Source: Chloroflexota bacterium
GTDB taxonomy: Bacteria; Chloroflexota; Dehalococcoidia; SZUA-161; SpSt-899
Reading direction: 5' to 3'
Assembly (NCBI GenBank): GCA_013203045.1
Contig: JABMQN010000059.1
Span: forward strand, 1 to 62,889
DNA: 62,889 nt
The notes beneath the pieces are model-generated. The model saw only the letters and a program-made list of their open reading frames with translations. It had not been told where the DNA came from and searched no databases. Shown here in pieces: positions 38,350 to 53,735 of the stretch. The position numbers were made by a program, and so were the translations under genes. Position 1 is the first letter of the stretch, and each line of letters begins with the position of its first letter.

Positions 38350-38358
38350 AACGCCTCC

Positions 38359-39720
38359 TTAGTCCTCCATATCCGGTGGCATGCCACGATGCATGATGTT
38401 ATTTGGATCAATGGACCTCTTGACCGTCCGATAGAGTTCGAGGTATGACTTCTCGATGTGTTTGGTCATATTCGGGAAAGGTCCCGGATAATCGGGTACA
38501 TAGCCGGCTTCGATCCAGCCATCGTGGACTTCCTGAATGATATCAAAAATCCTGTCCATATCGGTCTCTTCATCGTAGACATAGATGGGGAAATTATTGG
38601 CGTAGTTGCCATCTACCCACCAGCCCATACCTCGGTTCAGCCCATACTTTTCACCAACTGCGTTGTAATGGTCAAAGATCTCTTTCGTCTTGTGAATGGG
38701 ATGGAATCCACCGCAAGATATCTGCCTGCGAGAAGGTTCGTACGGCAGAGAAATTGAAGCAGCCGAGCCCCACTCAGCGGTTCGCTCACCTTCAACAAAT
38801 GCTCGTCCGCCAGCCTGCAGACAAAGCTCATGAGCTTTTTTAACTCGGAAATCAACTTCTTCCTGCCAACCCTCTGCTAACATGGAAAGAATCCACTTAC
38901 CTGGAGCGGGAGGTAACTGGTTGGTGATGCTCATCTGATCGTCAGTCACGCAGATGCCATATGAGATATTTGCTTCAACCAGAAGCCTAACTGCTTCCTG
39001 TACGGTCTCCTCATCCGGAAAAGCAAAGTCGACTTGCTGCTTGGCCTCAGGAATGCGGTACATGCGCATATAAACTTCTGTGATTACACCCATTGTGCCC
39101 AACGATTCAAGGAATAGTCCGGTCAGGTCAGGACCAGTGCCCTGATACCGAGTGAACTTGGCTGCTTTACCGAAGTGAGAAGATCCGGTATGGACAATCT
39201 CTCCGGTAGGTGTTACAACTTCCAGTCCTAGCAGGAAATCGCCTACTCGGCCATAAACCGATCCGCCCACGCCCATGCCATTGAAATTGACCCAAGCTGC
39301 AAGTGTCACTGCATTTCCGAATTCGGGTTTCCACGGGATTTTCCAACCTTTGGCGGCCAGGTCTTTGATAATCCTATAAACAGTAACTCCACCCTGCGCT
39401 GAAAATGACTGTGAACCTTCATCGAGCTCGATAGGATTATCCATGCGACACAGGTCGAGAGTAATTCCACCCTCGCGGGGAAGAGCTGCACCAGTATTGG
39501 TGGTTCCGCCTGCGCGGACATTCACCGGGGTAATAGTTTCGTTTGCCAGCTTCATGATTTCGGAAACTTCCTGCGTCGAACCCGGGTTGACGATCACTTC
39601 CGGCCTGCGATGAAGCTCATAGCTCCAGGCTCTCGCGTAGGCGCAAAGTTCCCATGGATCATCAGTGACCCATTGTTCACCAACGATTTCTTTGAGTCTA
39701 TTGACTAGTTTCTGATCCAA
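38359..39720 (-). CDS. FAD-binding oxidase (GlcD / D-lactate dehydrogenase-like, FAD_binding_4)
   Basis: 453 aa. It has a PCMH-type FAD domain (V.P.S..EV..I...A......V..RAGGT). It is adjacent to a GlcF/HdrD-like partner. Confidence 0.8.
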   Translation of the reverse strand: MDQKLVNRLKEIVGEQWVTDDPWELCAYARAWSYELHRRPEVIVNPGSTQEVSEIMKLANETITPVNVRAGGTTNTGAALPREGGITLDLCRMDNPIELDEGSQSFSAQGGVTVYRIIKDLAAKGWKIPWKPEFGNAVTLAAWVNFNGMGVGGSVYGRVGDFLLGLEVVTPTGEIVHTGSSHFGKAAKFTRYQGTGPDLTGLFLESLGTMGVITEVYMRMYRIPEAKQQVDFAFPDEETVQEAVRLLVEANISYGICVTDDQMSITNQLPPAPGKWILSMLAEGWQEEVDFRVKKAHELCLQAGGRAFVEGERTAEWGSAASISLPYEPSRRQISCGGFHPIHKTKEIFDHYNAVGEKYGLNRGMGWWVDGNYANNFPIYVYDEETDMDRIFDIIQEVHDGWIEAGYVPDYPGPFPNMTKHIEKSYLELYRTVKRSIDPNNIMHRGMPPDMED

Positions 39721-39812
39721 ATCGTTCCTCCTTTTCTAGATAATGTATTTAAGTTTCTCATTACTGCTCTAATAGTTCTGCGTGTATTGTTTTATTCCAG
39801 TCCCTCCTTGAT

Positions 39813-40268
39813 CTATTTTGTAGTGTCATCAGATACACAATCGACTCGAAACGAACCTTTTTCATGTTGTCGATCCACCAGGTCCTGCAAGGTGGTTGAT
39901 TCCAATATTTCGTCAGTAGCCTTCTTGATTCGGACCCATATATCATGGGTTACGCAGGAGCCTGAACTAGGACAGATTCCCGGATCATCAGCGCATTCTG
40001 TCGGGGAAATGGAACCCTCCATGATTTGAACTATCTCGCGTAATGTGATTTCAGAAGGTGCTCTGGTGAGTGTGAATCCACCGTGTGCACCACGCATGGA
40101 ACGGATCATCCCTGCTGCTTTGGGCGCAAGAAGCAATTGCTCAAGATATCGAGCAGACATTTTTTGCCGTTGAGCGATGTCTTTGACTAAAACAGGCCCA
40201 TTTCCCGAAAAAATAGCCAGATCTATCATTGCTCTGATGACATATCTAGATTTGGTGGTTAGCTGCAT
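39813..40268 (-). CDS. Rrf2-family transcriptional regulator
   Basis: 151 aa with MQLTTKSRYVIRAMIDLA wHTH and C-terminal CADDPGICPSSGSC ligands. Confidence 0.85.
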   Translation of the reverse strand: MQLTTKSRYVIRAMIDLAIFSGNGPVLVKDIAQRQKMSARYLEQLLLAPKAAGMIRSMRGAHGGFTLTRAPSEITLREIVQIMEGSISPTECADDPGICPSSGSCVTHDIWVRIKKATDEILESTTLQDLVDRQHEKGSFRVDCVSDDTTK

Positions 40269-40322
40269 TCTGACTTACCTTATCAATATGATTAATTACA
40301 TCGAGTGCATGAATATCATCGG

Positions 40323-40361
40323 AATACTGATAATAGTACCATCAACCATTTTCAGTGTCAA
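40323..40361 (-). promoter_or_regulatory. candidate promoter of the minus-strand Rrf2 gene, with an operator-like box
   Basis: The minus strand reads TTGACA-N17-TACTAT. It is followed or overlapped by ATTATCAGTATT (reverse complement of AATACTGATAAT) and GATGATATT. Confidence 0.5.
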
Positions 40362-40440
40362 TAGTTTTTCCCTGTTTTTCTCCGTCATCAGACAGTTGAT
40401 TTCCTAACACTCCACCCAATGTTACATAGTGATTCCACCC

Positions 40441-40497
40441 TTGACAACGCAATACAAGCGATACATAATTATTATGATGATAATACTGATAATTAGG
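40441..40497 (+). promoter_or_regulatory. candidate promoter of the plus-strand Rrf2/11-gene operon, with an operator-like box
   Basis: TTGACA-N17-CATAAT is followed by TATTATGATGATAATACTGATAATTAGG. This is nearly identical to the box at 53679..53711. Confidence 0.55.
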
Positions 40498-40505
40498 TTA
40501 GGCGC

Positions 40506-40925
40506 ATGAGGCTATCAACCAGATCAAGATATGCTGTACGTGCTTTGATAGACCTCGCTATGCACTTAGGTGAGGGGCCCGTTCTCGTCAGGGAAATCGC
40601 TGACCGTGAAGATATTTCCGTCCGCTACCTCGAGCAGCTGCTCCTGCCACTAAAAGCCGCGGGCTTAGTTAGGGCAACCCGGGGCGCTAATGGCGGCTTT
40701 ACCCTTGCCAAAGATCCTGCCGAGGTTAACCTCCGTGAGATAATTAAGATCATGGAAGGATCGACTGCGTTCACCGAATGTGTTGACAGCGCTGAAGTCT
40801 GCTCTCGTTCCGATACCTGCATCCTTCGTTCGTCGTGGATTGAAGTGACCGATGCGGCCAACAAGGTGATGGAGAAAACATCATTGCAAGTCATAGTTGA
40901 TCGTCAAAACCTGAAATCAAAATAA
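40506..40925 (+). CDS. Rrf2-family transcriptional regulator
   Basis: 139 aa with MRLSTRSRYAVRALIDLA wHTH and CVDSAEVCSRSDTC ligands. Confidence 0.85.
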   Translation: MRLSTRSRYAVRALIDLAMHLGEGPVLVREIADREDISVRYLEQLLLPLKAAGLVRATRGANGGFTLAKDPAEVNLREIIKIMEGSTAFTECVDSAEVCSRSDTCILRSSWIEVTDAANKVMEKTSLQVIVDRQNLKSK

Positions 40926-40935
40926 AAGGTAGCCA

Positions 40936-41406
40936 GTGGAAAACCAATTAACTAATCTGCTTGCTCCGTATATGGGGCAAAAAGGTGTTACCATACAGGT
41001 CCTTCAAAAAGTTCAGGAAGAACTGGGATACCTGCCTCGTGAAGCCATTGATGAAATAGCCCGAAGCCTGCGTATACCGCCTTCGGAAATCTTTGGGGTC
41101 ATTTCTTTTTATTCCCAGTTCCGAACCACGCCCCGAGGTAAGCATATTGTCAGAGTTTGCCGCGGTACGGCATGCCATGTACGCGGTGGCGGCGCAGTCC
41201 TGGATCAGATTAAAAGGGAGTTGAATATTGAAGAGAATGAAACAACTCCCGATCTTGAATATACAATTGAAACCGTGGCCTGTATCGGCGCCTGCGCGTT
41301 AGCCCCGGCGATGGTAATTGATGAAGATACCTTTGGCCAGATGACCCCGGGAAAAATTCCGAATCTATTTGTCGCTCAAAAGCAGGGGGAGGGGCAGGAT
41401 GCCTGA
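40936..41406 (+). CDS. NuoE/HydC-like [2Fe-2S] thioredoxin-fold subunit
   Basis: 156 aa with a GTG start. It has VCRGTACHVRGG and ACIGACALAP cluster motifs. Confidence 0.85.
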   Translation: MENQLTNLLAPYMGQKGVTIQVLQKVQEELGYLPREAIDEIARSLRIPPSEIFGVISFYSQFRTTPRGKHIVRVCRGTACHVRGGGAVLDQIKRELNIEENETTPDLEYTIETVACIGACALAPAMVIDEDTFGQMTPGKIPNLFVAQKQGEGQDA

Positions 41407-43291
41407 TCACGAGAACCCCTCCGAGCAATCTGATGGAAAACGCTCTATTCTTATCTGTCAGGCTCTGGGGTGTCTTTCCAGCCATTCGGACAGGATTCAA
41501 ACGGCGATTGAAGCAGAAATATCCCAATTGGAACTTGCGGATTCAGTCAATGTCAAACTTACCGGATGCCCCGGCCTTTGCCAGGAAGGCCCCATCGTTC
41601 TCATCGAACCGGAGGGCACTTTCTACGCCAGAGTTAAACCGGAGGATGCGCCGGATATTGCTCAATCGATGCTGCCCGATGGTCAGGTAGTGGAAAGACT
41701 CCTGTATCACGGTGATGACGGCCAGCCGATTCGTAACTATGCTGATATTCCCTACTATGTCAAACAGCAGCATATCGTCTTGCGCAATTGCGGTCATATC
41801 AATCCCGAAGAAATCGATGATTACATTGCCGTTAGCGGTTACGAGGCGCTGAAGAAAGTGCTAGCTGATATGGCTCCGGAACAGGTAGTCGAAGAGGTCA
41901 CCAAATCCGGAATACGCGGCAGGGGCGGAGCCGGTTTCCCCGCAGGCAGAAAATGGGCCGAAGCGCGGAAATCCACCAAAGAGCCCAAGTACGTCATCTG
42001 CAATGCTGATGAGGGCGACCCCGGCGCTTTTATGGATCGGAGCACTCTGGAAAGTGACCCTCATACTGTTATCGAAGGAATGATCATTGCTGGTTATGCC
42101 ATTGGCAGTGATACCGGCTACATTTATGTCCGTGCCGAGTATCCCCTGGCAATCAAACGCCTCAAAATTGCATTGAAACAGGCTGAAGGGAGGGGGTTGC
42201 TGGGAGATAATATCCTCGGTTCCGGTTTCAGTTTCACACTTCAAATCAGGGAAGGAGCCGGAGCCTTTGTTTGTGGCGAAGCAAGCGCTTTGATGTACTC
42301 TATCGAAGGCAAGCGCGGAATGCCACGGGTAAAGCCTCCAAGATCGGTTGAATCGGGACTGTGGGGTCTGCCTACTTCATTGAACAATGTTAAAACATTT
42401 GCCAGTGTCCCGGTGATCATTCTCCGTGGTGCGGACTGGTATGCCGGTATCGGAACACCTAACAGCACAGGCACCGCTGTTTTTGCTTTAACAGGCAAGA
42501 TCGTCAATAGCGGATTAATTGAAGTGCCGATGGGCATGACCCTGCGAGAGATCATTTTTGATATTGGTGGCGGACTTATCGGTGGCAAGGAGTTTAAGGC
42601 AGTACAGACCGGGGGTCCATCCGGTGGCTGCCTTCCAGCCAGCGCACTCGATCTGCCTGTCGATTTCGATTCCCTCAATGAAGCTGGCTCGATAATGGGT
42701 TCCGGTGGAATGGTGGTGGTTGACGAAGATACCTGCATGGTCGACCTGGCCCGATACTTCCTGGAGTTTACTCAGGAGGAATCCTGCGGAAAATGCGTGC
42801 CCTGCCGCATCGGGACGGAACTGGTGCTGGAAATCTTGGACCGCATTACCAACGGCGAAGGAAAACCCGGCGACATAGAATTACTTGAAGAATACGGGGA
42901 CGTGATTGCCAAGGGTTCGCTCTGTGGATTGGGGAAATCAGCTCCGAATCCGGTTCTTTCCACCATCAAATATTTTAGAGATGAATACGAGGCTCATATT
43001 AATGAAAAACGCTGTCCGGCCGGCGCGTGCCGCGCGCTTACCAGTTTCTATATCAATCCCGAAGCCTGCCGAGCCTGCATGCTCTGTTTCGAAAGCTGCC
43101 CGGTAGAGGCAGTCGATGGCTGGCTCAGGACAATTCACATTGTACTTCAGGAGAAATGCATCAAATGCGGTTCATGTTATGATGTCTGTCCATCTCTTTA
43201 CAACGCTATCGTGAAAGTGCCTGTAATAGAGGTTCCCCAACCACCTATGCCGGGGACGAAGGTACCGCGTAAGAAGAGGTCGAAATGTTAG
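41399..43291 (+). CDS. NuoF/HydB-like NAD(H)-binding FMN/Fe-S flavoprotein with N-terminal [2Fe-2S] and C-terminal 2x[4Fe-4S] domains
   Basis: GRGGAGFP.G.KW, NADEGDPGAF and ESCGKCVPCR motifs. The ATG at 41399 overlaps the NuoE-like stop as ATGCCTGA. The track ORF starts at 41369. Confidence 0.9.
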   Translation: MPDHENPSEQSDGKRSILICQALGCLSSHSDRIQTAIEAEISQLELADSVNVKLTGCPGLCQEGPIVLIEPEGTFYARVKPEDAPDIAQSMLPDGQVVERLLYHGDDGQPIRNYADIPYYVKQQHIVLRNCGHINPEEIDDYIAVSGYEALKKVLADMAPEQVVEEVTKSGIRGRGGAGFPAGRKWAEARKSTKEPKYVICNADEGDPGAFMDRSTLESDPHTVIEGMIIAGYAIGSDTGYIYVRAEYPLAIKRLKIALKQAEGRGLLGDNILGSGFSFTLQIREGAGAFVCGEASALMYSIEGKRGMPRVKPPRSVESGLWGLPTSLNNVKTFASVPVIILRGADWYAGIGTPNSTGTAVFALTGKIVNSGLIEVPMGMTLREIIFDIGGGLIGGKEFKAVQTGGPSGGCLPASALDLPVDFDSLNEAGSIMGSGGMVVVDEDTCMVDLARYFLEFTQEESCGKCVPCRIGTELVLEILDRITNGEGKPGDIELLEEYGDVIAKGSLCGLGKSAPNPVLSTIKYFRDEYEAHINEKRCPAGACRALTSFYINPEACRACMLCFESCPVEAVDGWLRTIHIVLQEKCIKCGSCYDVCPSLYNAIVKVPVIEVPQPPMPGTKVPRKKRSKC

Positions 43292-44364
43292 AAAAAGAAC
43301 TCAAAGAAATATACGAACTTTGTGTTAATTGCAGACTCTGCTTGAAAGAGTGCGAATTCCTGAAGAGTCTTTTTGAAACCCGTGATAGTATCATCGTGGA
43401 TCTGGAAGCCGAGGGGGCGAACAATAAAACCCTTTACTCCTGCACGATGTGTGATTTATGTGAGACCATTTGTCCCAGCGAATTGAATATCGGCAGGGCT
43501 TATTTGAAGTTGCGCCAGCAAAAGGGGCCTCTTCCGGTGCAGAAGAAATTCATCGATAAGGACCAGGAATGGGTCCTTTCCGATAACTTTGCCCTGGCCC
43601 TCCCTGACCCTGACAGCAGTGAATGCCAGCGAGTTTTCTTCCCCGGTTGTCATCTGGTAGGGTATTCCGCCGACCTGGTCATGAAAACCTACGAACATCT
43701 TAAAGCCAAATTGCCCGGCACTGCCATTTTACTGGGATGCTGCGGCGCTTCCAGGAGAGAATGCGGGGATGACGCCCTTTTCAAGGAAACAGCGGATAAT
43801 GTGGAGGCTGAAGTGAAAAAGCTGGGGGCTTCCGAGATCATCGTGGCCTGCCCGAACTGTCGCTACGCTTTCACTGAGCATGAACGTTCCCTGAAGATAA
43901 GGTCTATCTACGAAGTGCTGGACGAAATCGAATTACCTGAGATGGCCAGTAATGGTGAGCGGACATTCACTGTTCACGATCCCTGCCGGGCCAGGTGGCA
44001 GGATGAAATGCAGGATGCTGCGAGGAACCTTATTTCCAAGGCCGGGCATAAGATTGAAGAGATGCGGTATTCCAGAGATTTAACCATGTGTTGCGGACTT
44101 GGTGGGCAGATTCCCTATGCCAACGCGCCATTGTCGAAGACTATGGCAAAGCTACGGGCCGAACAGGCGGAGGTTGATATAGTAACATATTGTGCCAGTT
44201 GCCGGGATGCGCTTGCTCCCCATAAACCAACTTTGCACGTCCTTGATCTGATTTTCAATCCTGATTGGGATGAAGCCAGAACCAAACCGGCTGAAAAACC
44301 ATCCGAGAAACGGGAACATCAGTCGGCGCTCCGGGCACAACTGCTGGAGAAATTCGGCGGATAG
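43285..44364 (+). CDS. HdrD-like Fe-S protein (N-terminal 2x[4Fe-4S] plus two CCG domains)
   Basis: 359 aa with CVNCRLCLKEC and CTMCDLCETICP, then LLGCCGAS and TMCCGLGG. Its start overlaps the NuoF-like stop. Confidence 0.7.
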   Translation: MLEKELKEIYELCVNCRLCLKECEFLKSLFETRDSIIVDLEAEGANNKTLYSCTMCDLCETICPSELNIGRAYLKLRQQKGPLPVQKKFIDKDQEWVLSDNFALALPDPDSSECQRVFFPGCHLVGYSADLVMKTYEHLKAKLPGTAILLGCCGASRRECGDDALFKETADNVEAEVKKLGASEIIVACPNCRYAFTEHERSLKIRSIYEVLDEIELPEMASNGERTFTVHDPCRARWQDEMQDAARNLISKAGHKIEEMRYSRDLTMCCGLGGQIPYANAPLSKTMAKLRAEQAEVDIVTYCASCRDALAPHKPTLHVLDLIFNPDWDEARTKPAEKPSEKREHQSALRAQLLEKFGG

Positions 44365-44455
44365 CCAGGAAACCACATTTGCGAGGTATCTACAAACAGC
44401 CTATAATTATATTGACATGTTTTGAATTTTTACCATAAGGAGGCAAACCGCTGAA

Positions 44456-44710
44456 ATGAATCTGGAAAAAAGTCCTGAATTAAGCGCGCTCATGGAAGAA
44501 CGGGGCATCCGAGACGAAGAGGTGACCAAGGTCATCTCCGAAGCAGAATCCTCCGGTGACAAAATGTACAAACCGGATACCCCCGACTGCCTGGCCAAAC
44601 TGAAGATCGATGAAGCCACCTATTTTGTGGAATACTCCGTGATCGATGCTGACAATTTCAAAGTCAACAAAGCCTACAGCATGAAAACGGATTTCGCGGA
44701 GGAGTTGTAA
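44456..44710 (+). CDS. hypothetical small acidic protein
   Basis: 84 aa with AAGGAGG 8 nt upstream of the ATG. I do not recognise the family. Confidence 0.5.
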   Translation: MNLEKSPELSALMEERGIRDEEVTKVISEAESSGDKMYKPDTPDCLAKLKIDEATYFVEYSVIDADNFKVNKAYSMKTDFAEEL

Positions 44711-44712
44711 TC

Positions 44713-44904
44713 ATGGCAGAGTGGCATTGTCACAAGTGCAAAGTCCCCACCGAAGAAAAAGAGATCGAACTGCTTTATATGGATATGCCGGGATTCCAGA
44801 TGGCCTTTGTCTGCCCCAGCTGCAACGGCAAGTGGGTTTCCGAGGAAGTGGTCATCGGCAACATCATCCCGGGCGAGGAAGAACTGGAAGCCAAACTGGA
44901 ATAA
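44713..44904 (+). CDS. small CxxC...CxxC zinc-ribbon/rubredoxin-like protein
   Basis: 63 aa with CHKC ... CPSC. It starts 2 nt after the previous stop. Confidence 0.55.
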   Translation: MAEWHCHKCKVPTEEKEIELLYMDMPGFQMAFVCPSCNGKWVSEEVVIGNIIPGEEELEAKLE

Positions 44905-44919
44905 TTCAATCATCTTCCA

Positions 44920-45717
44920 ATGCAAGATGCTGATAAGGCAACAAAACAAACCATAACCCAGGCCTACGAATCCAACCATTTCAATGAGGTATTGGCAGAG
45001 ACCTTACATCTCGGCGGTTTGGAACTTACCGCCAGAGTTGCCGAGATCGCCGGGATCAATGAAAATTTACACGTTCTGGATATCGCCTCCGGTCGCGGGA
45101 CTACCGCCTGTTTTCTGGCACGGCAGTATGGCTGTCGGGTAACGGGAATCGACCTTTCTGATATCTCAACAAAGCTATCCACCCACAAAGCTACAGTTCA
45201 AGGCTTGGCTCCCGACACCGGTTTTCTTACCGCCGATGCTGAATATCTCCCGTTTGCAGATTGCTCCTTTGACGTGATTGTCAGCGAGTGTTCGTTTTCA
45301 CTGCTGACGAATAAGGAGATCGGGGCACAAGAGATTGCCCGGGTTCTCAAGCCGGGTGGGACGTTTGCCTTCACCGATGTGCTGTTAACGTTTCCCCTCA
45401 GCCAGGATTTGAAGACGAACCTGACCTTTAGTTGCTGCTTTTCCGGCGCAGAGACGAAAGCCGGATATCTGGAGCTGCTGGAGCATGCCGGATTGGCGCA
45501 AACCTATTTTGAAGATCACTCTAAGACGCTCAAAAAAGCCACTTATCAGGTGATCACCGGCTATGGTTCCCTTTCGGCTTTCTGGGATCAGTTCGGTTCA
45601 AAAGCTGATTCTTGCTGTCCAGTAAGTGGAGATACATCCGGGTCCCGCAAACTATGGCTGCGGATGTTTCGGGAAGGGAAACCGGGGTATGGCTTATTTT
45701 CATTTATCAAACCATAG
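44920..45717 (+). CDS. class I SAM-dependent methyltransferase, ArsM-like
   Basis: 265 aa with SAM motif I VLDIASGRG. Cysteines fall at the three positions that bind As(III) in ArsM: GRGTTAC, VSECSFSL and SCCFSGA. Confidence 0.75.
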   Translation: MQDADKATKQTITQAYESNHFNEVLAETLHLGGLELTARVAEIAGINENLHVLDIASGRGTTACFLARQYGCRVTGIDLSDISTKLSTHKATVQGLAPDTGFLTADAEYLPFADCSFDVIVSECSFSLLTNKEIGAQEIARVLKPGGTFAFTDVLLTFPLSQDLKTNLTFSCCFSGAETKAGYLELLEHAGLAQTYFEDHSKTLKKATYQVITGYGSLSAFWDQFGSKADSCCPVSGDTSGSRKLWLRMFREGKPGYGLFSFIKP

Positions 45718-45761
45718 TAGGGGCACATTGCAATGTGCCATTAATAATCAGGAGGCAACCA

Positions 45762-46136
45762 GTGATCACGCCAGAAATTGCAGTAACCGAATTTAGACGG
45801 CGGACCGTTGTGAAATCGTTAGCCTGGCGATTTATTGGAATCATCTGGACCTGGGTTGGCGCTTATCTGATCCTATTGTTTGTTCCTGATAAACATGCTT
45901 CAGCGGCACTGATCGCCACACTTATAGTGGTATACCATCACTCGACGCGCATGGTCATGTATTATTTCTACGAACGTCTTTGGACATCGATTAATTGGGG
46001 GAAAGTGGCTAAGAATCACGAAGTCGGCTTTGCCATGTCCGGGCGTGACAAAATCATGTGGATATCAGCCACGGTAACTGCCACGGTAATCATATTTACT
46101 CTAATACTGGTGGTAAGCCCGATGATAAACAAGTAG
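45762..46136 (+). CDS. DUF2061-like membrane protein
   Basis: Probable GTG start at 45762 preceded by AGGAGG. It has K.L.WR..G and a YY.YER.W pattern. The track ORF starts at 45612 inside the previous gene. Confidence 0.55.
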   Translation: MITPEIAVTEFRRRTVVKSLAWRFIGIIWTWVGAYLILLFVPDKHASAALIATLIVVYHHSTRMVMYYFYERLWTSINWGKVAKNHEVGFAMSGRDKIMWISATVTATVIIFTLILVVSPMINK

Positions 46137-46160
46137 GGGCAAGTTTCAAATTTGCCCCTA
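46134..46160. repeat. hairpin TAGGGGCAA...TTGCCCCTA (GTAGGGGC family)
   Basis: Read directly from the sequence. It starts at the DUF2061 stop codon. Confidence 0.7.
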
Positions 46161-46175
46161 TCGCAGTGAATCACT

Positions 46176-47564
46176 ATGAAAGAAATTCTCGCAAATACCA
46201 AAAGCCTTTGTCCGATATGTCTACAGGTTGTTCCTGCTCAGCGAGTGCAAGAAGGGCAGGATGTGTTTATTGAGAAAACATGTCCTGACCACGGTGAATT
46301 CAAAACGATCACCTGGCGGGGGGAGCCATCCTATCAGGATTGGAACGTGGGCGTATTCGCGCCCGGACCGAAATTGCGATTGACGGAAACCGTCAATGGT
46401 TGCCCCAATGACTGCGGAATCTGTCCTGAACACAAAGCGCAAAGCTGCACCATTTTGATGGAAGTCACCAGCCGCTGCAACTTGCAATGTCCGGTATGTT
46501 TTGCTAGTTCGGAAGACTCACCGGATGCCGAGCCGGCCATTGATGAAATCCGGGGAATGCTGGAAACGGTAATTGAAACTGCCGATGTCTGCCCCCTTCA
46601 GTTGAGCGGCGGAGAACCGACACTGCGGGATGATCTTCCTGATATTATCTCTCTGGCTAAACAGATGGGCTTTCCTCATGTTCAGGTCAATACTCATGGG
46701 TTAAGGCTGGCGAAAGACATTGAATATCTGGAGCGTTTGAGGGATGCGGGAGTGGATTTAATCTATCTCCAGTTCGACGGAGTTTCCGATGATGTGTATC
46801 TGCGGATTCGCGGGGCCAATCTGTTCGATTCGAAAGTGAGAGCCATTGAAAACTGCGCTCAAGTCAAAGTCGGAGTGCAACTGGTCCCAACGCTGATTCC
46901 CGGCATCAACGACCATCAGATTGGCGGGATAATACAATTTGCCTGCAAATATATCCCGGTGATCAAAGGGGTTCATTTTCAACCGGTCAGTTACTTCGGA
47001 AGATATCCGGTTGCTCCTGCTGATAAAGACCGAATCACTACACCGGATGTGCTCCGTGTGCTGGAAGAACAAACTGGCGGGGAAATCAAAGCCAGTAACT
47101 TCCTGCCGCGCCGTCGGCATGATTCTCATTGTGGCTTTTCCGGGTTCTTTGTACTGGATGAAGAGGACAAACTGGTAGCGACCACTGTTTTCAAACCAAG
47201 GCAACCATCTGCTGCTGATTGTAACGAAACCGCTGGACGTGTTTCCGAGGCAAATCAACCATCCGAGCATGTGCGCAAGTTTATAACTGAGAAGTCAAAG
47301 TATATCGAGCCGAACCCGGAACTGTTGGAGCAGCAACAGAAAGGCACATTGAAGAGGTTCATTCAGAGGGCTAAAACACATTTTCTCTCCATTTCCGGTA
47401 TGCCGTTTCAGGATGCCTGGACTGTAGATCTGGAACGATTGCAGGGATGTTGCATCCATGTGATCACGCGTGAGAAAAAACTGGTGCCGTTTTGCGCTCA
47501 CTATATTACCAACGCTGATGGGGAAAGGCTACATGGAGTGCGGAAGCCAAGCTTCCGCAAATAA
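46176..47564 (+). CDS. radical SAM enzyme with N-terminal Zn-ribbon and auxiliary Cys clusters (architecture like MJ0619/GDGT-MAS 'Tes' family)
   Basis: 462 aa with CPIC...CPDHG, CPNDCGICPEHKAQSC, the radical-SAM CNLQCPVC, and C-terminal CGFSG / GCCIH...PFCAHY. Confidence 0.8.
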   Translation: MKEILANTKSLCPICLQVVPAQRVQEGQDVFIEKTCPDHGEFKTITWRGEPSYQDWNVGVFAPGPKLRLTETVNGCPNDCGICPEHKAQSCTILMEVTSRCNLQCPVCFASSEDSPDAEPAIDEIRGMLETVIETADVCPLQLSGGEPTLRDDLPDIISLAKQMGFPHVQVNTHGLRLAKDIEYLERLRDAGVDLIYLQFDGVSDDVYLRIRGANLFDSKVRAIENCAQVKVGVQLVPTLIPGINDHQIGGIIQFACKYIPVIKGVHFQPVSYFGRYPVAPADKDRITTPDVLRVLEEQTGGEIKASNFLPRRRHDSHCGFSGFFVLDEEDKLVATTVFKPRQPSAADCNETAGRVSEANQPSEHVRKFITEKSKYIEPNPELLEQQQKGTLKRFIQRAKTHFLSISGMPFQDAWTVDLERLQGCCIHVITREKKLVPFCAHYITNADGERLHGVRKPSFRK

Positions 47565-47603
47565 AAGCGACAGTTCGACTGTCGCACTCCAGGAACCAAA
47601 ACA

Positions 47604-48734
47604 ATGACGGATAATCCATTACACGACGGCTTTATCACCGATGAGGCGCTGGCGACTTTTCGAAGTCGTGTTGGCTCAAAGCTGCGCATAAAAAACATTT
47701 TCAATGAGTTAGCCTCGAAAGATGCGATTCGAAAGTTTTGCGACGGCATCGGTGATCCCAATCCCCTCTGGCGTGACGAAGAATATGCCGAATCGTCGCG
47801 TTATGGATCGCTGATAGCGCCGCCTTCATGGCTGGCCAGCGTATTCCCGACCTGGGTTCTTCAGGGCCTGCCCGGGGTCCATGCTTTTCAGACCAGCACT
47901 GACTGGGAATTTTTGGAACCGGTATTGCTGAATGATCGCATCGTCCCTGAAAGTACGTTCCTTGATTTTCGAATAACCAAAAGCGAATTTGCCGGCAAAT
48001 CGATTCTGGAACGACAGGAGGCCCGGTATTTCAATCAGGACGGCAATCTTGTGGCTCGAGCCAGGGTTGCCGGGTTAAGAGCCGAAAGACCCTCCACCCG
48101 TGAGAAAGGCAAATATGACAGTATTCAACTTCCTCATCCGTGGACTGAAAAGGAGCTAAGAGCAGTTGAAGAAGAAGTGCTTGCTGAGGAGATTCGGGGT
48201 AGTATCACTCGGTATTGGGAAGATGTTGAGGTAGGAGAGAAATTGCCCCAAATAGTCAGGGGGCCGTTAGGCCTTTCTGATACCATCGCCTATTGCATCG
48301 GGGCCTCTCCGGTGCAGATCAAGGCTCACGGGCTGGCACTTCAGGAATATCGAAAACATCCAGCCTGGGCTTTCCGCGATTTGAGCACTTGTGCCTTGGA
48401 ACCTATTTATGGTGTGCATTATAACAAAGCGGCTGCCAATTCAGCAGGGCTTCCTTATCCATACGATACGGCGGTACAGAGACATTGCTGGCTTATGCAA
48501 CTCATGACGAACTGGATGGGCGATGATGGATGGCTCATGCGCAGCTTCGCCAAATACCGCAACTTCGTCTACCTTTCCGATGTTCTCTGGATTCGTGGCA
48601 AAGTGGCCCGCAAGTATATCGACGAAAACGGTGAACATTGCGTGGTCATCAAAACAACAGCAACCAATCAGCGAGATGAAGAGGTGATGCCCGGGCTTTC
48701 GACAGTGATCCTGCCTTCTCGTGAAAACGGTTAA
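47604..48734 (+). CDS. double hot-dog (MaoC-like N- and C-terminal) acyl dehydratase/hydratase
   Basis: 376 aa. The N-terminal part has FCDGIGDPNPLW, and there is a second hot-dog half. The family is recalled from its pattern. Confidence 0.65.
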   Translation: MTDNPLHDGFITDEALATFRSRVGSKLRIKNIFNELASKDAIRKFCDGIGDPNPLWRDEEYAESSRYGSLIAPPSWLASVFPTWVLQGLPGVHAFQTSTDWEFLEPVLLNDRIVPESTFLDFRITKSEFAGKSILERQEARYFNQDGNLVARARVAGLRAERPSTREKGKYDSIQLPHPWTEKELRAVEEEVLAEEIRGSITRYWEDVEVGEKLPQIVRGPLGLSDTIAYCIGASPVQIKAHGLALQEYRKHPAWAFRDLSTCALEPIYGVHYNKAAANSAGLPYPYDTAVQRHCWLMQLMTNWMGDDGWLMRSFAKYRNFVYLSDVLWIRGKVARKYIDENGEHCVVIKTTATNQRDEEVMPGLSTVILPSRENG

Positions 48735-48756
48735 TGCCCATCGTATATAAGATAAA

Positions 48757-50106
48757 ATGAACTTTGAAAACTGGATTCATGATAAAATCTGCCAAGCCAC
48801 AGGGAAATCCAACGTAACGCGAAGTGATATTGAAAGCTACCAGCTTCAGCGGTTAAACCATACGCTTGGTTACGTAAAAGAAAACAGCCCATTCTATCGC
48901 GATCTACTGGCTGATGTGGCTGAAATCCGTTCACTGAATGAAATTAGCCGGATTCCCTTCACCAATCCGCTGGATTTGGAACAGAGTCCATACAAACTGC
49001 TGTGTGTCTCCACGGGAGGAATTGCCCGGATATTCAGTCATTTCACCACCGGCACCATGTCCGGCAGACCAAAAAAGATATTCTTCACTTATAATGATGC
49101 GGAGGCAATCGTTGATTCGATGGCAGCGATCATGGAGACCGTAATCGATGGTGTGGGATTGAAGACGAGTGGGTGTAAAGTTCACATATTCCTGCCGAAC
49201 AACGGCCCCCCGATGAGCATGGCAGGGCTTATTTCCAGAGGAGTGGAACAGCTCGGCGGAATTCCGATTGTAGGCGATTGTACCGCGATGACACCGGAGC
49301 AAATTGAGCAGATAGAAGAGACAAAACCCAATATGCTGATGGGTTCGGCGTTTCGTATCTGGCGAATTACTCAGAAAGCAAGGGAACCTCATAATCTGGC
49401 TAGTATCGGAGTAAAGGCTGTTTTCGTTACTTCTGAATATCTTTCCAGGGCTATGCGGGAGAGGCTGGAAGAGTACTGGCAGGCGGAAGTATTTCATCAT
49501 TACGGGATGACCGAACCCGGATTTGTCATCGGGGTTGAATGCCGGGCACATGACGGATTCCATTTCAATGAAACCCAACTTTTGTTTGAAGTGGTCGACC
49601 CGGAAACCGGGCAGGTGCTGGGAGATGGAGAGGAAGGGGAACTGGTCTTCACTACCCTGCAAAGAGATGGCATGCCATTGATCCGCTACCGGACGGGAGA
49701 TGTTGCCTCTTTGCGCCGGGAGCCCTGCGGGTGTGGAGCTTCAACATTGACGAAGATCGGCACGTTACCAAAACGGGTCGGGCTGATCGTGAAAATCGGA
49801 GATGGGGAACAAATATATACCTCCCTGTTTGATGAGGTATTATATCAGATTCCAGAATTGATTGATTACCGGATATTCATTGACAGGGATGGTGATGTCG
49901 ATGCTTTGAATTGCAAGGTGGAAGTGCTGGGAAATCCTTCGGATATCGAGGAAAGAGCGCTTCAGCAATTGCTTGCAATTTCGCCGGTTCAAAAGAGCGT
50001 ACAGGCAGGTCTATTGGCAAACCCTGTGATCGAACTGGTTGAACGAGGGGTGTTGAGAAGGGGGGGGCGGAGAATGAAAAGAAGAATTGTGGATAATAGA
50101 GCGTAG
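48757..50106 (+). CDS. PaaK/coenzyme F390 synthetase-like AMP-forming CoA ligase
   Basis: 449 aa with SSGTTG replaced by HFTTGTMSGRPK, plus YGMTE and RYRTGD motifs typical of the phenylacetate-CoA ligase family. Confidence 0.8.
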   Translation: MNFENWIHDKICQATGKSNVTRSDIESYQLQRLNHTLGYVKENSPFYRDLLADVAEIRSLNEISRIPFTNPLDLEQSPYKLLCVSTGGIARIFSHFTTGTMSGRPKKIFFTYNDAEAIVDSMAAIMETVIDGVGLKTSGCKVHIFLPNNGPPMSMAGLISRGVEQLGGIPIVGDCTAMTPEQIEQIEETKPNMLMGSAFRIWRITQKAREPHNLASIGVKAVFVTSEYLSRAMRERLEEYWQAEVFHHYGMTEPGFVIGVECRAHDGFHFNETQLLFEVVDPETGQVLGDGEEGELVFTTLQRDGMPLIRYRTGDVASLRREPCGCGASTLTKIGTLPKRVGLIVKIGDGEQIYTSLFDEVLYQIPELIDYRIFIDRDGDVDALNCKVEVLGNPSDIEERALQQLLAISPVQKSVQAGLLANPVIELVERGVLRRGGRRMKRRIVDNRA

Positions 50107-50131
50107 AGACGACCCGACGGGTCGTCTCTAC
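50103..50131. terminator. bidirectional hairpin GTAGAGACGACCC-gac-GGGTCGTCTCTAC between convergent operons
   Basis: A 13-bp perfect stem followed by TTATTTT on the plus strand. It overlaps the ligase stop codon and abuts the activase stop. Confidence 0.7.
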
Positions 50132-50905
50132 TTATTTTGGCGCAATCTGCGCGATCAATGCCGCTCCAAGGGCCCCCATGATTTGGGGCTCATCACCAAC
50201 CACCACTTCCATCCCCAGCTCTTTTTCCAGAAAGTATTTAATACCTATATTTTTCGCCACCCCGCCGGTGAATACAATCTTGTCTTTGTAGCCAACTGTC
50301 TTTCCCATAATGATGACCCGGCGCGCCACGGCCCGGTGTATCCCGGCCACTATGTCTTCACGGTTTACATTTTCTGCGCGTAACGAGATCATCTCGGATT
50401 CGGCAAAGATAGTGCAGGTGCTGGTGACAGTGGCCGGAGCATGGCTCAGGAGGGCTTCAGGCCCCATTTCATCTATGGTGAGTTCCAGTACGTTGGCCAT
50501 AACTTCCAGGAATCTGCCGGTGCCCGCGGCGCACTTGTCATTCATAACAAAGTCGGCTACGGTTCCATCTTCACGCGGGCCGATAACCTTGCTGTCCTGC
50601 CCACCGATATCGATGATGGTCCTGGCATCAGGGATCAGGTGGTGCACGCCCTTGGCATGACAGATGATCTCGCTGACCCCCCGGTTCGAAAAAGATACCA
50701 CGTGTCGGGCGTAGCCCGTTGAAATGATAGCATCAAGATCTGACATGGTGAGTCCGGCTATTGCCAGTGCGTCTTCGGTCACTTTCAGGGCCGATTCCTG
50801 AACCTTGGAGCCAGTTGGTATGACTTTGTGGGCAATCATCTCACCATCTCTGACGATGGCGGTTTTGGCTGTGGCTGCGCCGACATCAACTCCTGCTGTT
50901 AACAT
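50132..50905 (-). CDS. BcrAD/BadFG/HgdC-type ATPase (dehydratase activase)
   Basis: 257 aa with AGVDVGA, IDIGGQD, a CAAGTGRF cluster-bridging Cys and FTGGVA. Confidence 0.85.
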   Translation of the reverse strand: MLTAGVDVGAATAKTAIVRDGEMIAHKVIPTGSKVQESALKVTEDALAIAGLTMSDLDAIISTGYARHVVSFSNRGVSEIICHAKGVHHLIPDARTIIDIGGQDSKVIGPREDGTVADFVMNDKCAAGTGRFLEVMANVLELTIDEMGPEALLSHAPATVTSTCTIFAESEMISLRAENVNREDIVAGIHRAVARRVIIMGKTVGYKDKIVFTGGVAKNIGIKYFLEKELGMEVVVGDEPQIMGALGAALIAQIAPK

Positions 50906-50958
50906 TGTCTAAAACCTCCGATAAGTCTCAATCCTGATTATACACCTTACATGTTATG

Positions 50959-51026
50959 AGGGGCACGATATTTCGTGCCCCTACGTTTCAATTTTTCACC
51001 TAACCCTCTCCCATTGAAGGAGAGGG
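50959..51026. repeat. two adjacent hairpins: AGGGGCACG-atattt-CGTGCCCCT and CCCTCTCC-cattgaa-GGAGAGGG
   Basis: Read directly from the sequence, between the activase gene and the Hgd-like subunit gene. Confidence 0.7.
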
Positions 51027-51043
51027 AATACTACCACGATTTT

Positions 51044-52453
51044 CTAGGCCGCTGCCTTCATTTCCTTGTTCATCTTGACAACTTCGGCAAACGATTCCAG
51101 CCTGGTCCTCAACTGTTCTGCGCTGTAGTTACGTGTATCGTAGCCATCGGTTTCCAGTACGATGGCCGGAATGCCCAGTTCTTTCTGAAGATCCAGCTTT
51201 GCCATAATTGGGTCGACAGCCCAGGGCCGGCAATTATAAGCATAAGAGATTATGGCTGCATCCATGTTGAAATCTTTGCAGAGTGTTTTCCAGTACATAA
51301 GAGCGGCAGAAGCATCGCAAAGCTGTGGCCTCCGGTACAGGCCTTCCGCGATCTTGTCGACCATATCGGTGTAGGTGCTCTTGGTAAGCTCTTGTGGACA
51401 TAGCCAGTCTACGAATACGGTGGGCAGGCAAAGTCCGAGTTCTTCCACCATTCTGATGGGTGTGGTATCGACATTGGTTCTCAGAGCAAGGTATACACGA
51501 GGAGCGCCCTTGGGAACCACGCCTTCGCCCTCATCGATCTTCCTTTTCACTTCCCTGACCATTGTGGCAAGACCATCAACTGCCTGATCCGGGTAATCGG
51601 TAGCTATTGCCCAGAGTCCGTATGGCAAATTGACATTCGCCTGGCTGATAGGTTGAGGATCAGCAGCTCCGATCATTCGGGTGATATTCTGCATCCCGTA
51701 GAGCCATTTGGCTACATATTTGAAACCGGCTTTCAATTGATCTTCGGTGGTCTCGATGCCGGTTATCTCTTTCACTCGTTTGAGGGCCAGCTTGATAGTG
51801 TTGGCGCTGTATTTCACAGCTCGTTCGTCGAGATTCGGCCAAGCATTCCAAGCCCAGTCGTTCACTCCATCGAGATAAGCAATCTCAAAATTATAGAGTT
51901 CACTCATCATCTCTTCGGTCTCGGCTGCCTGGTCACAGAACCAGCCGGAGCCGATTCCCAGGTCCGGCTTGGGGAGAATGCCCAGATCAATAGCGCCAGT
52001 GTAAATCTGGTACTGGGAGCAATGCGCCTTTCCGACTGGTTGACCGATAAGCTCGCCTCTCTCCAGCATGGGAGTAAGGATGTCGAAGACGGTTCCCCCC
52101 ACCATCCAGAGGACCTGTACCGGCATGCCAACCCAGGTCTTGCCGCCAGCCTCTCTGGCGGCAGCGATCATCGCCAGGGTCATTTGCACCGGGAAAGGCC
52201 AGTTGCAATTGATCACATAGTCGTGTTCGTCCCGGGCCAGCACCCCGTCGATACAACTGTGCATGAAGACCCAGAGAAGCTTTTGCACCGATACCATCTC
52301 GACATCATAGTTTGCCTGAACGGTCTTTTCGGCGTGCTCGATGGCAGCTTCGTTGAAGACGCCCATCCGCTCCAGCGCCTTCTCAATCCGAGGCCGCTGT
52401 TCCTCTATTTCTTCATCGGTATAACCGCACATCTTGAAAAGATTGCTATACAT
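51044..52453 (-). CDS. 2-hydroxyacyl-CoA dehydratase / benzoyl-CoA reductase BcrB-BadE-HgdA-like subunit
   Basis: 469 aa. The assignment rests on family-level resemblance, on pairing with the upstream HgdB-like gene (ATG overlaps its stop) and on the adjacent activase. Confidence 0.7.
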   Translation of the reverse strand: MYSNLFKMCGYTDEEIEEQRPRIEKALERMGVFNEAAIEHAEKTVQANYDVEMVSVQKLLWVFMHSCIDGVLARDEHDYVINCNWPFPVQMTLAMIAAAREAGGKTWVGMPVQVLWMVGGTVFDILTPMLERGELIGQPVGKAHCSQYQIYTGAIDLGILPKPDLGIGSGWFCDQAAETEEMMSELYNFEIAYLDGVNDWAWNAWPNLDERAVKYSANTIKLALKRVKEITGIETTEDQLKAGFKYVAKWLYGMQNITRMIGAADPQPISQANVNLPYGLWAIATDYPDQAVDGLATMVREVKRKIDEGEGVVPKGAPRVYLALRTNVDTTPIRMVEELGLCLPTVFVDWLCPQELTKSTYTDMVDKIAEGLYRRPQLCDASAALMYWKTLCKDFNMDAAIISYAYNCRPWAVDPIMAKLDLQKELGIPAIVLETDGYDTRNYSAEQLRTRLESFAEVVKMNKEMKAAA

Positions 52454-53604
52454 TAGTTCCCCCTCTGTTTCATGATTTCAACGAAAGTTTCCACCCTCGT
52501 TTTGAACTGGCCTCGCTCGGAGGTGTCGTAGTCAGATTCAAGTTTGAGGAATGGGAGACCGGTTACCTCCTCAAACTCCTTTTTGAAGGAGTATGACTGA
52601 ATATCGTATCCGTCGCGGTAGAGCAACTGGTACCACATGAGTCCATCCACCTTGAGTTCTTTGGCTTTGTTGATGAGGTAATCCACCCGTTCCCTCGTGG
52701 GCCTGAACCAGGCCGGCACCACCCGCTTCATAAAGAAGGTATCGGCCATCGCCAGTATGGGATCGCCATCTAAAGATACTTCGTGTTCGTATGGCATCAT
52801 CCCCTCGGCAGCTTCCTCAAAGATAAACTCGCCTCCGACCTCATTCATGATGTTGAAAATCTTGTAATCGCCCATAGCCAGGGTTGAAGCGGTCAGCAGG
52901 ACTTTCGGCTTGCCTGTTTCTTCCACCTGCTTTTGCTTGAGTTCCTCATACAAGGTCTCCAGTATTTCCCTCAGGGTAGCCCTGTCAGCATAGAAAGAAG
53001 CATGATGCAATTTAAGGAAATCTTGCGTGCTGATGGCCGGGGTTTTGCCGGGCTGGCGTAACTGAGAGATATTGCGGAAAAGTTCTCTCATCCGGTTTTG
53101 AGTCTTGATCTCTTCCTTTAATTTGTCCTCGGTAATGGTAATGCCAGTGAAGCTTTCCAACTTCTCTTTCAAGAGGCGAAGGCTTCCTATGTAGTAGTCA
53201 AGAGCATCCTGCCGCTTGTTGTGCGGGACTCCGTAGCGGAAGGTCTTAACATCTGTGTAGTAGTCCCAAACATCGGCAATGCCTCTCATGTTGATATCGG
53301 TTACGGGAACGACAATAAGGTCCGGGAGCTGGTAGAGAACTTCCTCTCCCATCACCCGGTACCCAATCTGGCATCTGCAAAACGTATCGATAAAACGAGG
53401 GATGTAAGCCAGGCTTTCCGCCACTGGCTCCGGGTCTCCGCCACGTGCCAGGCAAAGCGGTAACGCGCCGCTGGCATAGATCATTTCTTCGGGCAAATAC
53501 CCTCCCGGTGGATAGCCAATAATTTTTTGCCCGTCCTTTTTGATTTGACGCAGTTCCGGGCGTCTCTTTGAAAGATGTTCTGCTAGTCTTTCCATTGCAT
53601 CCAT
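52453..53604 (-). CDS. 2-hydroxyacyl-CoA dehydratase subunit (BcrC/BadD/HgdB family)
   Basis: 383 aa. The N-terminal K.G.K.IGY.P..Y.PEE...A.G and C-terminal LESDY pattern fit the HgdB/BcrC family. Confidence 0.75.
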   Translation of the reverse strand: MDAMERLAEHLSKRRPELRQIKKDGQKIIGYPPGGYLPEEMIYASGALPLCLARGGDPEPVAESLAYIPRFIDTFCRCQIGYRVMGEEVLYQLPDLIVVPVTDINMRGIADVWDYYTDVKTFRYGVPHNKRQDALDYYIGSLRLLKEKLESFTGITITEDKLKEEIKTQNRMRELFRNISQLRQPGKTPAISTQDFLKLHHASFYADRATLREILETLYEELKQKQVEETGKPKVLLTASTLAMGDYKIFNIMNEVGGEFIFEEAAEGMMPYEHEVSLDGDPILAMADTFFMKRVVPAWFRPTRERVDYLINKAKELKVDGLMWYQLLYRDGYDIQSYSFKKEFEEVTGLPFLKLESDYDTSERGQFKTRVETFVEIMKQRGN

Positions 53605-53678
53605 ATGTATTCATCCCTCCACTGTTCGTTTGGTTTACAGTTACGTGTAGAATCACCAATATCAGCACGCAAATTCAG

Positions 53679-53735
53679 CCTAATATTAGTAATATCATCA
53701 TAATTATTATGTTACTTCCACACCTTGGTTGTCAA
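53679..53735 (-). promoter_or_regulatory. candidate promoter of the Hgd-like operon, with the same operator-like box as 40441..40497
   Basis: The minus strand reads TTGACA-N18-CATAAT followed by AATTATGATGATATTACTAATATTAGG. Confidence 0.55.

Follow-up and report, generated by a model that had tools for sequence, protein, structure and literature searches.

Regulators of the Rrf2 family such as IscR, NsrR, RsrR and CymR share one fold, are encoded first in or divergently from an operon and have a site in their own promoter, and in the Fe-S (iron-sulfur) repressors of the family a site over the -10 element and the transcription start (+1) is the usual repressor position. The same arrangement is found in a stretch of 62,889 nucleotides from a Chloroflexota bacterium of the class Dehalococcoidia (GenBank assembly GCA_013203045.1, contig JABMQN010000059.1), which was analysed at its full length and is called the window here. 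Two Rrf2-family genes diverge in it: that on the plus strand (Rrf2p) heads an operon of electron-transfer genes and genes around the radical SAM protein TrsS, and that on the minus strand (Rrf2m) heads a short unit with a GlcD-like oxidase gene. A third, Hgd-like operon converges on the first. Just behind the -10 element of the Rrf2p and Hgd-like promoters lies a 23-bp box, which, to judge from its sequence and setting, is probably the operator of a clade-specific, autoregulated Rrf2-family repressor, with Rrf2p as the best candidate. The original prediction, made from the letters of the window alone, had joined these units into one candidate regulon through a shared promoter and box; this idea is supported, and extended, by a conserved box on the same promoters and on unlinked units of related genomes.

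The structural genes likewise have described relatives. The Rrf2p operon largely shares its core families and gene order with a set curated in NCBIfam as TrsS, DVU_1553, DVU_1556, DVU_1557 and 'diclust_near_Sec', named after the Desulfovibrio vulgaris DVU_1553-1557 loci, and the Hgd-like operon shares two HGD-D subunits plus an activase with HgdABC, HadBC-I and BzdNOPQ. The genes had been thought impossible to map to a described pathway. This does not hold for the core, which is the curated neighbourhood, but it does hold for function, which is not assigned there; literature searches on TrsS/DVU_1553-1557 and on the Rrf2 proteins of Dehalococcoidia turned up no account of either function or regulation.

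Sequence, position and conservation of the box

The box was defined by the 23-bp consensus ATTATGATGrnwwTACTrATAww (type A), and a 23-nt weight matrix built from 17 sites was scanned over both strands of the fetched DNA (1.38 Mb). Through aligned TrsS homologues, 80 genome loci were retrieved, onto all of which the window proteins were mapped; the closest TrsS loci belong to uncultured Dehalococcoidia (89-66% identity). Individual loci are cited by number (L001 and so on).

Re-reading the sequence confirmed both modules as first quoted, namely TTGACA-N17-CATAAT-TATTATGATGATAATACTGATAATTAGG at 40441-40497 on the plus strand and TTGACA-N18-CATAAT-AATTATGATGATATTACTAATATTAGG at 53735-53679 on the minus strand, and an independent recount again gave 24 of 28 matching columns after the -10 element, with three mismatches and one 1-nt gap. 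The placement at or just past -10 was also borne out, at 1 nt past for both type A sites and with a 2-nt overlap for the box at the Rrf2m promoter. In the Rrf2p promoter, the 3' end of the box (40471..40493) lies 12 nt upstream of the ATG. The two type A modules form the longest inverted repeat within 36-56 kb (29 nt, 90% complementary), and a scan of 37-54 kb for sigma-70-like promoters ranks theirs best (11/12 each), with the Rrf2m promoter in the top six. When a 26-nt degenerate form of the box was allowed up to three mismatches, only the two type A sites matched in 62.9 kb, and none was expected from shuffles. In the window, the regions ahead of hcp, cysK/cysE and the Crp/Fnr gene contain nothing above 8 bits, and a 12.2-bit match at 34847-34869 falls within an open reading frame (ORF).

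Close relatives share one module, consisting of TTGACA, a spacer of 17-21 nt, a -10 element (CATAAT, TATACT or TATAAT), 1-3 nt and a type A box. The box is kept in all fetched related Dehalococcoidia loci, at 9/9 Rrf2p gene starts, 4/4 starts of operons that have no Rrf2 gene and 7/7 starts of Hgd-like operons; it is present at the operon start in L001-L006 and L082 and ahead of the first Hgd-like gene in L001, L002, L005, L006, L081, L082 and L085. At the Rrf2p-operon promoter of nine orthologous loci the -35 and -10 hexamers are kept but the spacer is not. Averaged per column over 20 distinct type A promoters, information amounts to 1.46 bits within the box and 1.10 bits within the 12 nt holding the -10 element, as compared with 0.13 in the -35/-10 spacer and upstream sequence and 0.33 downstream of the box, which is a clean phylogenetic footprint. 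True sites score 25.5-39.3 bits on the matrix, the 17 from which it was built reaching 25.5-39.2, whereas the best unrelated match in 1.38 Mb reaches 17.6 bits, and seven sites that were found after the matrix had been built (L206, L207, L209, L210, two in L211, and L212) score 25.7-39.3 bits. None was found in the more distant trsS loci (TrsS identity of 65% or less: L008-L080 and L215), and the box is restricted to the Dehalococcoidia subclade that possesses Rrf2p. The patterns that would speak against a regulon were not seen: the box does not recur at many unrelated AT-rich promoters, neither the window nor the roughly 1.4 Mb of related loci having a further site; relatives keep it at the same promoters; and the units are co-localised in relatives, those that are separated (L001 with L207, L005 with L209) still being boxed.

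The ends of the type A box form the dyad A-T-T-A-T-n-A ... T-n-A-T-A-w-T, in which five of the seven positions are complementary (1, 3, 4, 5 and 7 with 23, 21, 20, 19 and 17) and the centre (10-13) is variable. At the Rrf2m promoter, the N17 spacer and the sub-motifs ATTATCAGTATT and GATGATATT are present as stated, but the description of this third box as rearranged has to be replaced. It is a whole, colinear plus-strand copy at 40312-40334, inverted with respect to the minus-strand gene, and a repeat search aligned 40309-40334 with 40468-40493 at 77% identity. This type B box (AwTATCATCGGrwTACTrATrAw) occurs at 4/4 Rrf2m promoters (window, L082, L211 and L212), in each case inverted relative to the gene and overlapping the -10 element, and is more palindromic (AWTATCA-N9-TGATAWT, with 6-7 of 7 end positions complementary). 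From these promoters, the box appears to be usable in either orientation at the same distance from -10. In L212, the leader of the stand-alone Rrf2m unit also contains a weak forward box-like site, GTATTCATCATATTACTAATATA (430-452, 11.1 bits), some 14 nt past the type B box.

Unlinked units and the candidate regulator

In L001, L003, L004 and L005 the trsS operon begins at the 84-aa gene and is boxed, with no Rrf2, NuoEF or HdrD gene nearby. In two metagenome-assembled genomes (MAGs), an Rrf2p orthologue lookup placed Rrf2p-NuoE-NuoF-HdrD in an operon of its own, on a further contig of the assembly that holds the trsS operon. The CAZWIP01 assembly carries a box of 36.1 bits at L207 (contig 7, Rrf2p-Nuo-HdrD) and, on contig 1 (L001), boxes of 37.7 bits at the 84-aa operon and 36.0 at hgd; in JAWOBB01, L209 (contig 57) scores 39.3 bits and the two sites of L005 (contig 28) score 35.5 and 34.3. 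Both assemblies have one box at two or more unlinked units, the regulator's own gene included, as is expected of a regulon. Because three unlinked transcription units in one genome share the box, a trans-acting factor is implied, and the presence of the box at the Rrf2p gene in nine of nine distinct loci (L206, L211 and L216 among them) points to Rrf2p, autoregulated, as this factor. Rrf2p is also the only regulator gene that is always associated with the box. The original prediction had left the choice at one or both Rrf2 proteins; Rrf2p is the better candidate because every orthologue is boxed, and cross-talk from Rrf2m is possible.

The units are joined or split differently among the relatives. 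Rrf2p-NuoEF-HdrD is its own boxed operon in L207, L208 and L209, and in L210 (35.9 bits) it is cut off after NuoE; NuoF and HdrD of L207 are 97% and 95% identical to those of the window. The same genes are fused to the 84-aa...ligase unit in the window and in L002, while in L006, L082 and L206 Rrf2p and an HdrD-like gene head that unit without NuoEF. Each separated unit retains its own box after such fission or fusion, and the window operon, from these comparisons, looks like a fusion of two units. The run of genes predicted as an 11-gene operon probably has an internal promoter: the box-less element at 44379-44407 (P2) is probably a second promoter for the trsS half. It falls in the 91 nt that separate the HdrD-like gene from the 84-aa gene. 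Its hexamers, though not its spacer, are kept in the leaders of the 84-aa gene in L001 (~835-870), L004 and L005, where the P2-like element lies ~60 nt downstream of the box promoter, and P2 in the window looks like the remnant of the downstream unit's promoter after unit fusion. Further, L081 (1-10177) is a mosaic in which identity to the window is 93-95% for TrsS, the hot-dog protein and the small membrane gene and much lower for the methyltransferase (69%), 84-aa protein (62%), HdrD (55%), NuoF (57%) and NuoE (35%), and in which an extra Fer2 gene is present, which suggests a recombination breakpoint between the methyltransferase and membrane genes.

Membership in the proposed three-unit regulon is probable for the Rrf2p/trsS and Hgd-like units and is less certain for the Rrf2m unit, because its box is of an inverted, distinct subtype and because it is missing beside the operon in L206 and stands alone in L212. 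Orthologues of Rrf2m (about 80% identical) occur in two loci. In L211, Rrf2m diverges from an Rrf2p gene and is followed by the GlcD-like gene, and L212 has Rrf2m and the GlcD-like gene alone behind a terminator; the divergent pair is also present in the window and probably in L082, and the Rrf2m unit is likewise missing beside the operon in L207 and L209. It may answer mainly to Rrf2m. Downstream of the unit in the window are hcp and a Fer4_5 ferredoxin-like gene (34336-36850, minus strand), behind the strong terminator at 37137-37100, which makes hcp a separate unit.

Several points weigh against the assignment of the box to an Rrf2p operator. All evidence is computational and was drawn from MAG and metagenome-contig sequence. 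Type A boxes are weakly symmetric, position 6 never complementing position 18, and the conserved central TAC and GAT could come partly from shared descent of duplicated promoters and not from protein contacts. The promoter-like element at 44379-44407 has no box and may free the trsS half from control. In addition, the orthologue lookup did not find the location of the Rrf2p gene for L003 and L004.

Rrf2 paralogues, proposed control and other readings

Both regulators are clear members of the family, with 133.3 and 128.1 bits for PF02082 (cutoff 30) and 126.1 and 128.3 bits for TIGR00738 (cutoff 73.3). They remain under the equivalog cutoffs for IscR (110-119 bits, cutoff 207.55), CymR (111-119, 195), NsrR (38-42, 182), RirA (61-73, 193) and the SUF regulator (69-82, 110.65). 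C92, C99 and C105 are invariant in 10 aligned members from three paralogue groups, and because of these three conserved cysteines Rrf2p probably carries an Fe-S cluster. The recognition helix, S-x-RYLEQLLL, is identical in the three groups, which differ systematically at residues 33-39, before or at the helix start, in parallel with G/C differences at box positions 6, 9 and 16. The box subtype follows the paralogue: type A at Rrf2p, type B at Rrf2m and a TTAGT variant at the third group. The latter (147 aa; L213) has the related box ATTATCACTAAnnnGATGATATT at its own promoter and at two tandem promoters upstream of an ATP-binding cassette (ABC) transporter, each time immediately behind the -10 element; the L213 boxes are found at 806-828, 889-911 and 5958-5980. 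Neighbouring genes in L213 encode this NMT1-type ABC transporter, two CysK, ThiF, a class-V aminotransferase and CysE, and from its gene content the set looks like a candidate cysteine regulon in Dehalococcoidia.

In the control that we propose, a dimer of Rrf2p would sit just downstream of the -10 element, across the transcription start, and block RNA polymerase. It would repress its own gene together with the NuoEF/HdrD-like electron-input genes, and would co-regulate the trsS set (small redox proteins, methyltransferase, Tes-like radical SAM, hot-dog hydratase and CoA (coenzyme A) ligase) together with the ATP-dependent Hgd-like enzyme of the convergent operon and its activase. The state of the presumed Fe-S cluster would relieve or impose repression, with redox, nitric oxide (NO) or Fe-S supply as the putative signal. 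Rrf2m would control the Rrf2m-GlcD-like-CCG unit via the type B box, and the two regulators could show cross-talk.

The protein that binds the type A box might also be another paralogue, be it Rrf2m, both Rrf2p and Rrf2m, or the third, cysteine-metabolism-type protein, with cross-regulation or hierarchical control among them. The identical recognition helix and the same three cysteines in all groups are in keeping with this, as are the related boxes across groups and the divergent position of Rrf2m and Rrf2p noted above, but type A boxes persist in L206, L207 and L209, where Rrf2m is not beside the operon, and the subtype tracks the paralogue, with residues 33-39 differing by group. We consider another binder unlikely, if still the most serious competitor of Rrf2p. 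The box could alternatively need no dedicated regulator and act as an RNA or 5'-leader element: a strong promoter would have been duplicated along with the first stretch of its transcript, and this stretch would be conserved for an effect on promoter escape, mRNA stability or translation. It does span the expected +1 to about +18 and would be mostly transcribed, and in the window hgd leader its 3' half can pair with a downstream segment in a 14-bp stem. The opposite orientation at Rrf2m promoters, however, would turn the RNA into its complement; folding z-scores are ordinary (-0.55, -1.10 and +0.38); the 14-bp pairing partner was not seen by eye in the hgd leaders of L001, L002, L005 and L085, whose sequences differ; no Rfam match was found; and the distance from the box to the start codon ranges from about 12 to about 100 nt. 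An RNA element is improbable in view of these features.

A chance match in AT-rich DNA, or an assembly artefact, would leave the box without function. A metagenome scan with the 21-nt core ATTATGATGRNNWTACTRATA returned at least 120 matches, and 117 of the 120 listed are chance matches in low-GC, apparently coding DNA, without TTGACA or -10 context; only L132 and L206 are real among those listed. The bare core thus arises by chance in AT-rich DNA, so that promoter context matters. The whole box behaves differently: in addition to the zero expectation from window shuffles, box and promoter context are conserved in independent assemblies of different studies, and no match of 20 bits or more was found in 20 Mb of random sequence at the GC content of the window, nor any of 25 bits or more at 35% GC. 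Chance or artefact is accordingly the most remote of the readings. An operator bound by Rrf2p itself is the reading that we retain.

Genes under the box and comparison with described systems

The positions of the features are collected in the table. In the second half of the plus-strand operon (44456..50106) the gene order is 84-aa protein, 63-aa CxxC protein, methyltransferase, small membrane protein, TrsS, double hot-dog protein and CoA ligase. The CoA ligase belongs to the DVU_1553 family (323.7 bits, cutoff 300) and the methyltransferase barely enters the DVU_1556 family (156 bits, cutoff 155), while the 63-aa CxxC protein is below the cutoff for the DVU_1557 family (40.8 bits, cutoff 60) and above that for Pfam DUF7479 (46.7, cutoff 27). 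The small membrane protein has a weak DUF2061 match. TrsS, which passes the cutoff of its own family, combines an N-terminal zinc ribbon (Pfam Zn_ribbon_HMPTM) with the radical SAM domain. The methyltransferase (44920-45717) has two C-terminal Cys-Cys pairs, FSCCFSG and DSCCPVSG (45462-45470 and 45633-45641), reminiscent of the metalloid-binding cysteines of ArsM-type enzymes. The order HdrD-like, 84 aa, 63 aa, methyltransferase, TrsS, (hot-dog), ligase is found again in MAGs of the Chloroflexota, Desulfobacterota-like, Acidobacteriota and Firmicutes groups and in archaeal ones.

Features of the window, with positions counted from its first nucleotide
Feature	Position	Strand	Details
CCG Fe-S protein	37174-38349	-	profile match
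Rrf2m unit	37174..40268	-	three genes; ends at terminator 37137-37100
GlcD-like FAD oxidase	38359-39720	-	profile match
Rrf2m	39813-40268	-	Rrf2 family
Type B box AATATCATCGGAATACTGATAAT	40312..40334	+	27.4 bits; inverted relative to Rrf2m; 2-nt overlap with Rrf2m -10
Promoter of Rrf2m unit	40333..40361	-	TTGACA (40361-40356)-N17-TACTAT (40338-40333); 10/12, TG before -10
Promoter of Rrf2p-headed operon	40441..40469	+	-35 TTGACA 40441-46, N17, -10 CATAAT 40464-69; 11/12 against consensus
Type A box ATTATGATGATAATACTGATAAT (putative operator)	40471..40493	+	36.9 bits; 1 nt past -10
Rrf2p, Rrf2-family regulator, 139 aa	40506..40925	+	PF02082 E 7.5e-39; Cys92/99/105
NuoE-like, NuoF-like (+2x4Fe-4S) and HdrD-like (Fer4+CCG) genes	40936..44364	+	redox module with NADH input and CCG domains
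Probable box-less internal promoter P2	44379..44407	+	TTGCGA-N17-TATAAT; 10/12; ahead of 84-aa gene
84-aa gene through DVU_1553-family CoA ligase	44456..50106	+	seven genes
TrsS radical SAM	46176-47564	+	NF045646 581.7 bits (cutoff 490)
Bidirectional terminator hairpin between convergent operons	50103..50131	both	13-bp stem
HgdC-like activase	50132-50905	-	TIGR00241 265.3 bits (cutoff 125.4); PF01869 190.4
HGD-D family subunit	51044-52453	-	PF06050 (the two subunits: 230.3 and 107.4 bits)
HGD-D family subunit, smaller, 383 aa	52453-53604	-	PF06050 (the two subunits: 230.3 and 107.4 bits)
Type A box ATTATGATGATATTACTAATATT, Hgd-like operon	53682..53704	-	38.8 bits; 1 nt past -10
Promoter of Hgd-like operon	53706..53735	-	TTGACA-N18-CATAAT; 11/12

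With two HGD-D subunits and a BcrAD/HgdC-type ATPase, the minus-strand operon has the composition of the 2-hydroxyacyl-CoA dehydratase/BCR superfamily. Of the 80 loci, 20 have Hgd-like genes no more than 10 kb away from trsS, in Chloroflexota, Desulfobacterota-like and Firmicutes MAGs, and this proximity across phyla argues for a functional link independent of the box. An alternative arrangement tying an Hgd-type activase to trsS is seen in the seawater locus L215 (389-4059; TrsS 65%), where the activase gene immediately precedes those for the 84-aa-like, DUF7479, methyltransferase and TrsS proteins and both Rrf2 and the box are lacking. Among solved structures, the smaller Hgd-like subunit best matches 7YYL and 6ENO ('Dehydratase family protein'), followed by HadC 3O3M and BzdN 8S02. 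We take 6ENO and 7YYL to be the double-cubane protein DCCP. Assignment of the smaller subunit to the double-cubane proteins (NF040772) was rejected, as it scores 183.5 bits against a cutoff of 350 and has three cysteines (C51, C76 and C78) instead of the seven of the double-cubane motif (bioRxiv 10.1101/2022.07.06.499078).

Past cysK, the minus strand at 55572-59161 encodes a Crp/Fnr-type regulator, an activase-type radical SAM protein with a ferredoxin domain and a 637-aa ORF without Pfam match; the same trio is also found downstream in L081 and L082. A pyruvate formate-lyase (PFL)-like glycyl radical enzyme occurs near the operon in L216, with its activase, and in one JGI (Joint Genome Institute) locus. 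A partial tRNA gene lies at the window edge (1-56, minus strand; Rfam RF00005, 40.7 bits).

As judged by the gene families, the parts suggest an anaerobic pathway in which the ligase would activate an acid, the Hgd-like enzyme, its activase and the hot-dog hydratase would carry out radical chemistry of the 2-hydroxyacyl-CoA or aryl-CoA type, and NADH would feed a CCG-type reduction; an ArsM-like methyltransferase and a Tes-like radical SAM enzyme would also take part. More speculatively, the box might define a small, dedicated regulon that ties the Hgd-like radical enzyme, the NADH-fed HdrD-like reductase and, via the sister regulator, the GlcD-like 2-hydroxyacid oxidase to the TrsS system in one undescribed anaerobic pathway, whose substrate would be a CoA-activated acid and whose chemistry would combine methyltransfer of the thiol or metalloid type with radical C-H steps, under control of a recently diverged pair of Fe-S Rrf2 proteins with co-diverged operators. 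TrsS-type clusters are found in many anaerobes that have not been cultured (Dehalococcoidia, Desulfobacterota, Acidobacteriota, gut Firmicutes, Methanomassiliicoccales and Bathyarchaeota) under curated names without function, and a conserved operator on unlinked units provides independent evidence that the NuoEF/HdrD-like input genes and the trsS core work together with the Hgd-like enzyme and activase. The outcome is a defined 23-bp candidate site and two candidate sensor proteins, all directly testable. The locus is also a case of operon fission and fusion in which the operator is retained, and Rrf2 paralogues whose operator subtypes differ at few positions are useful for studying the specificity determinants of the family.

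The Hgd-like subunits are far under the HadB/HadC and Bcr equivalog cutoffs. In relation to the NCBIfam TrsS neighbourhood, the window has separate NuoE- and NuoF-like genes in place of the N-terminal FAD/NAD(P) portion of the 759-aa 'diclust_near_Sec' protein, whose C-terminal portion is divided between the HdrD-like and 84-aa genes; hot-dog and Rrf2 genes are added; and the window TrsS has no selenocysteine codon. Residues 7-311 of TrsS align to 24-330 of Tes/GDGT-MAS (PDB 7TOL; E 5e-100), but the gene context is one of redox, CoA and methyltransferase genes rather than lipid synthesis. As a Tes (NF045702) the protein was rejected, scoring 374.8 bits against a cutoff of 450 with a match limited to its N-terminal ~310 residues, the best stretch joining residues 8-311 to profile positions 2-308 of 486. 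TrsS is easily mistaken for one of the bacterial "Tes homologues" invoked for branched glycerol dialkyl glycerol tetraether (brGDGT) lipids; such homologues have been proposed as brGDGT synthases (PMC8941075), a proposal that should not be carried over to TrsS without a test.

The closest solved structures to the regulators are Thermincola IscR 4CIC, then CymR 2Y75/3T8R and IscR 4HF0, and the cysteines at 92/99/105 in Rrf2p compare with 92/98/104 in IscR. The box is presumably unlike the IscR type 1 and type 2 sites and the E. coli-type NsrR consensus. Dimers of Rrf2 proteins bind operators of roughly 19-29 bp with dyad symmetry. The ScNsrR site is 23 bp long with a central 7 bp free of base contacts (PMC9338935); the box has the same length, with conserved ends and a variable centre. 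Homology to the ScNsrR hmpA1 operator was considered and rejected, as GAATATCATC is common to both but in a different register, and was treated as coincidence. The targets also differ from those of IscR, NsrR and CymR in that they are not genes for Fe-S assembly, NO detoxification or cysteine synthesis. Overall, the regulatory logic of an autoregulated Rrf2 repressor at -10 is ordinary in kind; a further difference from the known Rrf2 cases is that this lineage has two to three closely paralogous regulators whose operator subtypes are related.

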